A DNA stretch of 64,000 nucleotides from an uncultured Dehalococcoidia bacterium (GTDB taxonomy: Bacteria; Chloroflexota; Dehalococcoidia; Dehalococcoidales; UBA1222): positions 6,785 through 70,784 of the forward strand of contig CAIMVG010000021.1 of the NCBI GenBank assembly GCA_903844845.1, written 5' to 3'. A model generated the notes under the pieces. The model saw only the letters and a program-made list of their open reading frames with translations, did no database searches and had not been told where the DNA came from. Positions 17,212 to 18,483 of this stretch are shown one piece after another. Every line of letters begins with the position of its first letter. Position 1 is the stretch's first letter. Both the position numbers and the translations under genes were made by a program.

Positions 17212-17490
17212 CTAACAGCATTCGGCTGAGTCTATACTTTTACCTTTGAGGGCCGCCTTAATCATGGCCGAAGCGCAGCCAACCCCGCTCCGGACGGATA
17301 TGGCGTCGGCGGGGCAATTGAGTGCGCAGGCCCCGCATTCCATGCAGGCTTCCTTTTTGACCAGTTGTGCCTTCTCTCCCCCGGCGAACACGCCGTGAGG
17401 GCAAACCGTCCAGCACATGGCACAGCCGATACATAGTTCTGGCTTGTATTCGAGCGTATTGACTTTATACGAGTTAAACATAACAAGCAT
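17212..17490 (-). CDS. hgcB: HgcB, 2x[4Fe-4S] ferredoxin of the mercury methylation pair
   Basis: CIGCAMCWTVCP and CMECGACALNCP are present, matching the HgcB signature C(M/I)ECGA. The C-terminus ends in ECC (vicinal Cys). The ATG directly abuts the hgcA stop. Confidence 0.8.
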   Translation of the reverse strand: MLVMFNSYKVNTLEYKPELCIGCAMCWTVCPHGVFAGGEKAQLVKKEACMECGACALNCPADAISVRSGVGCASAMIKAALKGKSIDSAECC

Positions 17491-18483
17491 CTAGTGAACG
17501 AATTTTGCAACGATATTCAGGATGATGCCCATAGTGAAGGAAATCAAAAGCGGGCGGATATAACTGATCATCTCTCCTTTAACCCCGCTTCTGGAGGTAA
17601 AGGTACTGGCTCCTGTGAAATTCAGGGATATATAGGCGGTGACCGGAGGCCAGATTAAAAAGTTGCTCACGGTAGTGAGAACTTTGTGCGCCAGGGTTGC
17701 ATCAGTGCCCAAAACAAGCATATTAACGAGGCTGACTGCCAGTGTGATGACTATGCCGAGGCTCCACCCTTTAGTAGTGAAATCCCGTGTTGGCAGCCAC
17801 GGCAGCAGTAACGGAAACAAAATTGCCCCGCCGACAACGGAGAGGACAACCATCAGAGTTGCGGCCCATCCGCCCCAGAAAAATAGCCCCGCTGCCGCCA
17901 CCAGGGTATAGAGGAGATACCCGAGCATCTCAACCGGGGTGAGCACGACCCTGTCGACAATTCCGAAACGAACGCGTCGCATGTCAGTGGTGGCTGTATG
18001 GGTCTTAAGGTATTCAGGGAGGTCCCCGGACCTCACCGGCCCGTATTCAACTTTGAATCCCGATTGTTTCTTGACGATATGGGCCGAGACGCCGGGCGCA
18101 CTCAGTTGGGGCAGGATGACGGTGCGGTGACGCACTACACGTGCTAGCTCGGAAGTCTCGATCCGTTCGACGACTTCTTCCGTGCCGAAGGTGTGTTTTC
18201 CTGCGGCGCACCAGACATTTACGCCGAATGTGTTGATCACCAGGATATACGCGTCGATGCCTTTAAGGGCCGACCGCAAGGCGTCGAAACTGAGTGTGTA
18301 ATTCGCACTCACGAGAACGGGCGAGTCCTGCCCCGGTTTTCCGAGGGAGTAAAGGCCGGGCCTGACACGGTGTTCGCCGCGTTTCCATCTCAATCGGGCG
18401 AGGAAATGGTCCCAGTAGTCGGCCCATCCCAGGGCGCTGGAAGCCGGGAAAATAGGGATTTCGATTCCAATGCTTTCCGACAT
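17491..18483 (-). CDS. hgcA: HgcA, corrinoid protein of the mercury methylation pair
   Basis: GVNVWCAAGK matches the published cap-helix motif N(V/I)WCA(A/G)GK. The Cys92 codon is at 18208-18210. The C-terminal half has ~5 predicted TM helices. Confidence 0.85.
   Translation of the reverse strand: MSESIGIEIPIFPASSALGWADYWDHFLARLRWKRGEHRVRPGLYSLGKPGQDSPVLVSANYTLSFDALRSALKGIDAYILVINTFGVNVWCAAGKHTFGTEEVVERIETSELARVVRHRTVILPQLSAPGVSAHIVKKQSGFKVEYGPVRSGDLPEYLKTHTATTDMRRVRFGIVDRVVLTPVEMLGYLLYTLVAAAGLFFWGGWAATLMVVLSVVGGAILFPLLLPWLPTRDFTTKGWSLGIVITLAVSLVNMLVLGTDATLAHKVLTTVSNFLIWPPVTAYISLNFTGASTFTSRSGVKGEMISYIRPLLISFTMGIILNIVAKFVH

Follow-up and report, generated by a model that had tools for sequence, protein, structure and literature searches.

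The gene pair considered here, hgcA and hgcB, lies on the minus strand of a 64,000-nt stretch of contig CAIMVG010000021.1 (the window), which comes from a metagenome assembly of oxygen-poor/stratified lake water and for which all coordinates were recomputed from the sequence. The hgcA open reading frame (ORF; 17491..18483) encodes the corrinoid protein of the pair, a product of 330 amino acids (aa) followed by a TAG stop codon at 17491-17493. The hgcB ORF (17212..17490) encodes a ferredoxin of the 2x[4Fe-4S] type that is 92 aa long when read from its first ATG; this ATG (17488-17490) is the triplet immediately after the hgcA TAG, is in frame with hgcA, and opens a frame that ends at 17212. Within HgcA the sequence GVNVWCAAGK includes the cap-helix motif NVWCAAGK (residues 89-96; 18196..18219, minus strand), and the cysteine of this motif, Cys92, is the only cysteine of the protein (codon TGC, 18208-18210) and the predicted lower axial ligand of the cobalt. 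The corrinoid-binding region of HgcA (17995..18369, minus strand) is outlined by a Pfam CdhD match to residues 39-157 and by sequence and structure matches to CFeSP (corrinoid iron-sulfur protein), and the transmembrane (TM) domain (17497..17961, minus strand; residues ~175-329) is outlined by AlphaFold2 helices and hydropathy.

The cysteines of HgcB are arranged in two full CX2CX2CX3CP motifs, CIGCAMCWTVCP at 17398..17433 (Cys20/23/26/30 in the 92-aa numbering) and CMECGACALNCP at 17311..17346 (Cys49/52/55/59), the second of which includes the HgcB signature CMECGA. A further cysteine, Cys72 (17275..17277), follows 13 residues past the last cluster cysteine, Cys59, and the ORF ends in ...SAECC with the pair Cys91-Cys92 at 17215..17220; all of these positions are on the minus strand. 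A preliminary description of the locus had reported the 330-aa ORF with GVNVWCAAGK, Cys92 at 18208-18210 and its TAG stop, together with a CMECGAC ferredoxin ending in ECC, and each of these statements was reproduced from the sequence.

The preliminary description had also proposed a search with curated hidden Markov models, which was run with those of NCBIfam and placed both proteins above the cut-offs of their own families. HgcA scored 403.9 bits against the HgcA_corrinoid equivalog NF040863 (cut-off 275, E 4.7e-121, hmmscan), with residues 14-328 aligned to model positions 4-324 of 325. HgcB scored 110.5 bits against the HgcB_ferredoxin equivalog NF040864 (cut-off 99, E 2.6e-32, hmmscan), a modest margin of the kind expected for a protein of ~90 aa. 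Measured against these models neither ORF is truncated, and a chance match is excluded by the two E values. The high-stringency rule of the Hg-MATE consensus protocol asks for a listed cap-helix motif in HgcA and, for HgcB, for C(M/I)ECGA encoded on the contig that carries hgcA (10.1101/2022.03.14.484253). Both proteins carry the published motifs, HgcA with NVWCAAGK, which matches the pattern N(V/I)WC(A/S)(A/G/S)GK including the conserved cysteine, and HgcB with CMECGA directly downstream of hgcA. HgcB also has the extra cysteine that is looked for ~12-13 residues past the second motif (Cys72), as well as the C-terminal cysteines (Cys91-Cys92). In an alignment of 30 homologues (54-84% identity), G87, N89, V90, W91, C92, A93, A94 and G95 of HgcA are invariant and K96 is nearly so. 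On this evidence the locus very probably encodes true HgcA and HgcB orthologues that are predicted to confer mercury methylation.

A different assignment of the same matches would make the pair a non-methylating paralogue, either a split version of the fused HgcAB-like proteins or a CFeSP (AcsC/CdhD)-type corrinoid protein with a neighbouring ferredoxin. HgcA does match the fused HgcAB-like model NF043039 (218.9 bits) and the CFeSP/acetyl-CoA decarbonylase/synthase (ACDS) gamma model (75.3 bits), but both scores fall below the curated cut-offs, 285 and 306 respectively, and the canonical HgcA model is passed by a wide margin. The gamma model aligns only residues 39-163 of HgcA, to its last ~125 positions, so that the full-length match above the cut-off that marks a CFeSP large subunit, including its N-terminal [4Fe-4S] and TIM-barrel domains, was not obtained. 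Pfam finds CdhD alone on HgcA, through the C-terminal third of that model (and 4Fe-4S domains on HgcB), and a sequence search of the Protein Data Bank (PDB) with HgcA returned CFeSP large subunits only (2h9a, 4c1n; residues 40-160, E ~1e-10). This likeness is limited to residues ~40-160 and does not extend to the cysteine, and HgcA has in addition the family-specific membrane domain. The shared frame of hgcA and hgcB, with one stop between them, is reminiscent of a fusion and recurs in 9 of ~20 diverse loci, where hgcB follows in frame straight after the hgcA stop; against this, the TAG is present in all six assemblies compared, and hgcB of relatives has its own Shine-Dalgarno sequence and start codon. 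With the paralogue models below threshold and the genes in separate ORFs, the relationship that the preliminary description had named as grounds for abandoning its assignment was not found, and a paralogous origin of the pair is judged very improbable.

The characterised relatives of HgcA differ from it in corresponding ways. Fused HgcAB-like proteins (NF043039; for example, that of Pyrococcus furiosus) share with the present pair a corrinoid domain, a cap-helix-like motif, a membrane domain and ferredoxin motifs, and they showed no mercury methylation when tested (10.1101/2022.03.14.484253); the pair described here consists of two genes with a stop codon, even though these share one frame with only the TAG between them. 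The CFeSP large subunits have a homologous corrinoid-binding fold over residues ~40-160 of HgcA, with 28-30% identity (2h9a/2ycl/4c1n) or 22% identity (4djd). They differ from HgcA in having an N-terminal [4Fe-4S] domain and in having neither a cap-helix cysteine nor a membrane domain. The methyl group's origin also differs, as CFeSP receives it from methyl-tetrahydrofolate via MeTr, whereas HgcAB uses S-adenosylmethionine (SAM) (PMC11588087).

An AlphaFold2 model of HgcA, built on the 30-homologue alignment, has a mean pLDDT of 80 and a pTM of 0.70. In this model residues ~11-170 form a domain of alternating strands and helices, and residues 175-329 are helical (175-229, 235-257, 264-288 and 298-329), with a hydrophobic stretch of ~54 residues over 175-229 in the hydropathy profile. 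The best match in a Foldseek search of a PDB library was the HgcAB model of Pseudodesulfovibrio mercurii (Desulfovibrio desulfuricans) ND132 (9a0b_A; E 9.7e-17, 35% identity), which aligned over the full length of HgcA in 331 columns. The next matches were CFeSP large subunits, which aligned over ~125-150 columns with the N-terminal domain only, at a root-mean-square deviation of 2.3 Å over ~125 columns (2h9a and 2ycl). The model thus supports a two-domain architecture for HgcA, with a predicted N-terminal corrinoid-binding domain and a predicted C-terminal helical membrane domain.

The ND132 HgcAB pair is genetically and biochemically characterised and provides the closest functional reference. 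It has the same layout of hgcA followed by hgcB, the same cap-helix motif, in which the essential Cys93 corresponds to Cys92 here, and the same N-terminal corrinoid and C-terminal membrane domains. In HgcB, Cys20/23/26/30 have identical numbering in the two proteins, Cys49/52/55/59 correspond to ND132 Cys50/53/56/60, and Cys91/92 correspond to ND132 Cys94/95. Cys72 is the counterpart of the essential ND132 Cys73, the spacing from Cys59 to Cys72 being equal to that from Cys60 to Cys73. Mutagenesis of ND132 identified HgcA Cys93 and HgcB Cys73 as essential and revealed a need for at least one cysteine of the pair Cys94/95 (PMC7305189). The two systems differ in that the HgcA proteins are only ~35% identical and in their hosts, a sulfate reducer in the case of ND132 and a Dehalococcoidia-type member of the Chloroflexota here. 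An ArsR-like regulator also lies upstream in ND132 (10.1101/2022.10.17.512643), and none lies upstream here.

In ND132, HgcB reduces the cofactor to Co(I), and SAM, rather than methyl-tetrahydrofolate, yields methyl-Co(III) with the conserved cysteine thiolate as the lower ligand; transfer of the methyl group to a Hg(II) thiolate follows (PMC11588087). All of the residues essential in ND132 are present in the lake-water pair, and for that reason the same enzyme chemistry is expected. HgcA would be a membrane-anchored corrinoid protein, its N-terminal domain binding cobalamin and its cap-helix Cys92 ligating the cobalt from below. The HgcB ferredoxin, with its two [4Fe-4S] clusters, would reduce the cofactor to Co(I), which would be methylated by SAM to methyl-Co(III). 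The methyl group would then pass to Hg(II), probably presented by Cys72 and the C-terminal cysteine pair of HgcB, to give methylmercury. The family membership, catalytic residues, domain layout, gene adjacency and conserved genomic site are observed properties of the locus, and methylmercury output by its host is a prediction made from them by analogy with ND132.

Several points weigh against this reading or some part of it. The preliminary description had credited HgcA with a C-terminal domain of ~5 TM helices. A helical membrane domain is indeed indicated by hydropathy and AlphaFold2, and the helix lengths fit the five-helix model of ND132 HgcA (TM helices of 31, 31, 21, 24 and 29 residues; PMC7305189) if residues 175-229 are taken as helices 1 and 2. 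DSSP, however, reads 175-229 as one long helix, so that the number of TM helices (four or five) is a matter of interpretation and the count of five is compatible with the model rather than established by it. The cap-helix residues 87-97 have a pLDDT below 50, and the Cys-on geometry is consequently not displayed by the model; such low confidence is expected for a cap helix modelled without its cofactor. With regard to function, mercury methylation may be a side reaction of HgcAB, and as of a 2020 paper no hgcA-carrying member of the Chloroflexi had been tested for methylation (PMC7573106). Moreover, a 933-aa ORF on the same contig (2334-5135, minus strand) combines COX1, FixO/CcoO and two cytochrome c domains in one polypeptide. 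It scores well below the NCBIfam cut-offs and looks like a divergent fused cbb3-type (C-family) haem-copper oxidase-like protein, possibly a high-affinity O2 (or NO) reductase, which raises the question of how often the host meets conditions that suit the O2-sensitive HgcAB.

The position of the hgcB start codon was examined in five relatives. Four of the five open at the equivalent of Met4 (M/V-FNSYK), with ATG in L001, L002 and L003 and GTG in L030, and a clear Shine-Dalgarno sequence precedes hgcB in L003 and L030. The fifth, L029, keeps FNSYK and has no canonical start codon there. In addition, 89 aa is the length of most members listed for the HgcB cluster at 90% identity. The agreement among relatives favours Met4 as the start, and the codon used here is probably the ATG at 17479-17481, which would give a protein of 89 aa and a 9-nt spacer after the hgcA stop. 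The preliminary description was right that an ATG directly abuts the hgcA TAG, and its use of that ATG as the start of hgcB is the less likely choice. Programmed read-through or fusion across the in-frame stop was considered and rejected, as the relatives have their own Shine-Dalgarno sequence and ATG or GTG at the conserved MFNSYK; ordinary separate or coupled translation explains the single in-frame stop as judged from these sequences.

Two public hgcB calls are cut to 68 aa (L029, 8065-8271; L030, 8069-8275). Neither selenocysteine nor a frameshift accounts for them, as the frame is open and a later ATG was picked by the gene callers, the true start being GTG in L030 and non-canonical in L029. 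The first [4Fe-4S] motif is as a result missing from the database proteins, and shortened entries of this kind could make surveys miss hgcB.

The reliability of the locus was assessed from other assemblies. NCBI, ENA and Logan all contain an identical HgcA, the longest contig that bears it measuring 211 kb, and at least six independent assemblies, made from different samples, contain the identical gene pair together with its flanks (BUCK21-1 SAMEA6872869, SAMEA6872990, SAMEA6872946, ERR4195120, ERR4195121 and ERZ27313590). Cys92 and the TAG stop are the same in all six, which largely answers the concern, raised in the preliminary description, that the conserved cysteine might disappear once read or assembly errors are considered. 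The nearest named HgcA proteins belong to metagenome-assembled genomes (MAGs) of Dehalococcoidales/Dehalococcoidia (70-79% identity), and those of Desulfobacterota, Phycisphaerae, Syntrophus and Clostridia are at most 50% identical. RecA, encoded in the flank, is 93-98% identical to RecA of Dehalococcoidales/Dehalococcoidia MAGs. The attribution to Chloroflexota is borne out by both proteins, and the sequence comparisons support a Dehalococcoidia-type (Chloroflexota) bacterium of stratified freshwater as the host.

Given that the sequence comes from a metagenome assembly and that hgcAB has a patchy phylogenetic distribution, the pair might in principle be a chimera of the assembly or consist of decaying pseudogenes, in either case foreign to the genome, a scenario for which nothing more specific speaks. 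It is contradicted by the recurrence of the same arrangement and the identical HgcA in six assemblies and on long contigs, by the full length of both ORFs, and by synteny that is kept in relatives. The composition of the pair is also like that of its flanks, with a GC content of 0.548 against 0.536 for the window, and a composition test for horizontal transfer found no GC or skew anomaly over 17.2-18.5 kb. The rest of the window holds chromosomal housekeeping genes (recA, recX, rny, valS, secA, glyA, prs, RNase J, ftsK, uvrB and TCA-type enzymes). A chimeric or decayed origin is accordingly the least credible of the alternatives considered, with next to no weight.

Downstream of hgcB, 73 nt away and on the same strand, lie folP, folK and a QueD/PTPS-family gene (15353-17138, minus strand). 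The first two were identified with the models DHPS TIGR01496 (270 bits) and FolK TIGR01498 (134 bits), and the PTPS-family gene beside folK may stand in for FolB. The gene order rny-recX-recA / hgcA-hgcB-folP-folK-queD-like-...-rplU-rpmA-rpmE is identical in two relatives, L029 (HgcA 74% and RecA 98% identical) and L030 (HgcA 71%, RecA 95%). Elsewhere one side of the arrangement is kept, L031 retaining hgcAB-folP with different upstream genes, and L001 and L003 retaining recA-hgcAB with other genes after hgcB. In L001, a Dehalococcoidales MAG, the genes between hgcB and folP encode two GcvH-like proteins whose N-terminal extensions are long, a fusion of lipoate-protein ligase and radical SAM, and a regulator of the ArsR family (7290-10642), and in L003 the corresponding space is occupied by a xanthine-dehydrogenase-type molybdoenzyme set (molybdopterin dehydrogenase). 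Insertions seem to occur readily at the site downstream of hgcB. Among the HgcA proteins of Dehalococcoidales/Dehalococcoidia MAGs that are 70-79% identical (329-331 aa; for example, MGA3093938.1, annotated as 'mercury methylation corrinoid protein HgcA', and RJO62736.1), the same recX-recA genes lie upstream and folP-folK-PTPS lies downstream in several; HgcB ends in C-D-C-S there and in E-C-C here.

A further and more distant relative, L032 (RecA 87%, FolP 64%), presents the site without the gene pair. Its recA directly faces folP over 138 nt (4863-5000), there is no hgcAB, and no cap-helix motif was found anywhere in the L032 locus. The 138-nt spacer aligns at both junctions with the window, at 17139-17211 and at 18484-18749. 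Its left side corresponds to the recA side of the window, including the conserved GAACAAATGTTA box, and its right side to the folP side, including TTGCCC-N-TATACAAT. From this alignment it follows that the hgcAB cassette sits exactly between the control regions of recA and folP, with folP keeping its own promoter-like site (TTGCCC-18-TACAAT, 17157-17186, upstream of the folP operon). In the loci compared, HgcA has diverged to much the same degree as FolP and FolK, which, together with the unremarkable composition, fits a long vertical residence of hgcAB in the clade. From the sequence comparisons, hgcAB appears as a small and self-contained cassette of the chromosome that has been passed down together with the adjacent genes in the lineage, and L032 would represent either the ancestral empty site or a loss. 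The GAACAAATGTTA box itself, at 18710-18721 and ~30 nt upstream of the recA start, is kept in L001, L003, L029 and L032. Given its likeness to the Gram-positive-type LexA (Cheo) box GAAC-N4-GTTC, it probably serves recA as its SOS operator.

A candidate promoter for hgcA was found immediately upstream of the gene. The sigma-70-like site TTGACC-17 nt-TAAAAT (18490..18518, minus strand) agrees with the consensus at 10 of 12 positions and stops 6 nt short of the hgcA ATG; no Shine-Dalgarno sequence precedes the gene. L029 and L030 (6966-6994 in each) have the same two hexamers at the same 6-nt distance from the ATG, while the bases of the spacer vary, at an HgcA identity of 71-74%. L001, L003 and L031 have a different arrangement, without a leaderless-type promoter. 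This pattern of conservation suggests a leaderless or nearly leaderless hgcA mRNA in the sub-lineage. No ArsR-type regulator was found upstream of hgcA in the 266-nt hgcA-recA spacer, and a 95-aa ORF upstream in L029 has no Pfam match. Rfam and tRNA scans of the whole window gave no hits, which leaves hgcAB with neither a cobalamin riboswitch nor another known RNA element in its vicinity.

The persistence of the pair at this site bears on the reason for which it is kept. True HgcAB orthologues might have their native job elsewhere, in the reductive dehalogenation of halomethanes or another corrinoid-dependent one-carbon (C1) reaction, with mercury methylation incidental and possibly negligible in situ. 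In a 2026 preprint, heterologously expressed HgcAB is reported to dechlorinate CCl4, and its use in halomethane metabolism is proposed for Dehalococcoidales, a primary hgcAB lineage; this is a single unreviewed preprint, and the work concerns other organisms. The retention of hgcAB at one chromosomal site beside housekeeping and folate genes, through the substantial divergence that separates this locus from L029 and L030, argues for selection on some native function, and no mer or arsR-type gene adjoins the pair in the window. On the other side, all residues for mercury methylation are conserved here. The promoter-like site of the folP operon is also found in the hgcAB-free L032, so that the adjacency of the pair to the folate genes need not be functional. 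Moreover, the two roles are not mutually exclusive, and a native function of this kind would alter why the genes are kept and not what they are. The proposal is considered unlikely, though it is the alternative that carries most weight. A more specific version is improbable, namely that hgcAB is a long-resident cassette with its own leaderless mRNA, kept for a C1 or halomethane reaction tied to pterin/folate metabolism, with mercury methylation as a by-product. If it were true, the presence of the pair here and its absence from L032 at one syntenic site would constitute a natural experiment on the purpose of HgcAB.

Mercury methylation by a true HgcAB pair is retained as the preferred reading, and with regard to the reduction of HgcB one other part of the window may be mentioned. 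At 60303-63461 on the plus strand, a NuoF-like flavoprotein, which has additional 4Fe-4S domains, is encoded ahead of a NuoG/formate-dehydrogenase-like molybdopterin protein. The two could possibly form an electron-bifurcating hydrogenase or formate dehydrogenase module, and its use as a low-potential electron source for HgcB is speculation.

The occurrence of hgcA in Chloroflexi has been reported for years from metagenomes, MAGs and isolate genomes (PMC7438021; PMC7573106), and the Hg-MATE-based protocol has Chloroflexota as one of its dominant hgcA assignments (10.1101/2022.03.14.484253). The locus is accordingly a known system in a known host group, and its architecture, motif and context represent no new variant; general understanding is unchanged, as Dehalococcoidales already count among the main carriers of hgcAB and public databases already contain the identical protein. 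No work connecting hgcA with the stratfreshDB dataset came up in a literature search. What is new here is the Met4 start predicted for hgcB, the recA / hgcAB / folP-folK-queD-like site with its empty-site relative, and the candidate leaderless promoter of hgcA. The hgcAB pair is the only known genetic marker of microbial production of methylmercury, a neurotoxin that accumulates in fish. Its intact presence flags this stratified-lake Dehalococcoidia population as a putative methylator, information of use to inventories of environmental genes.

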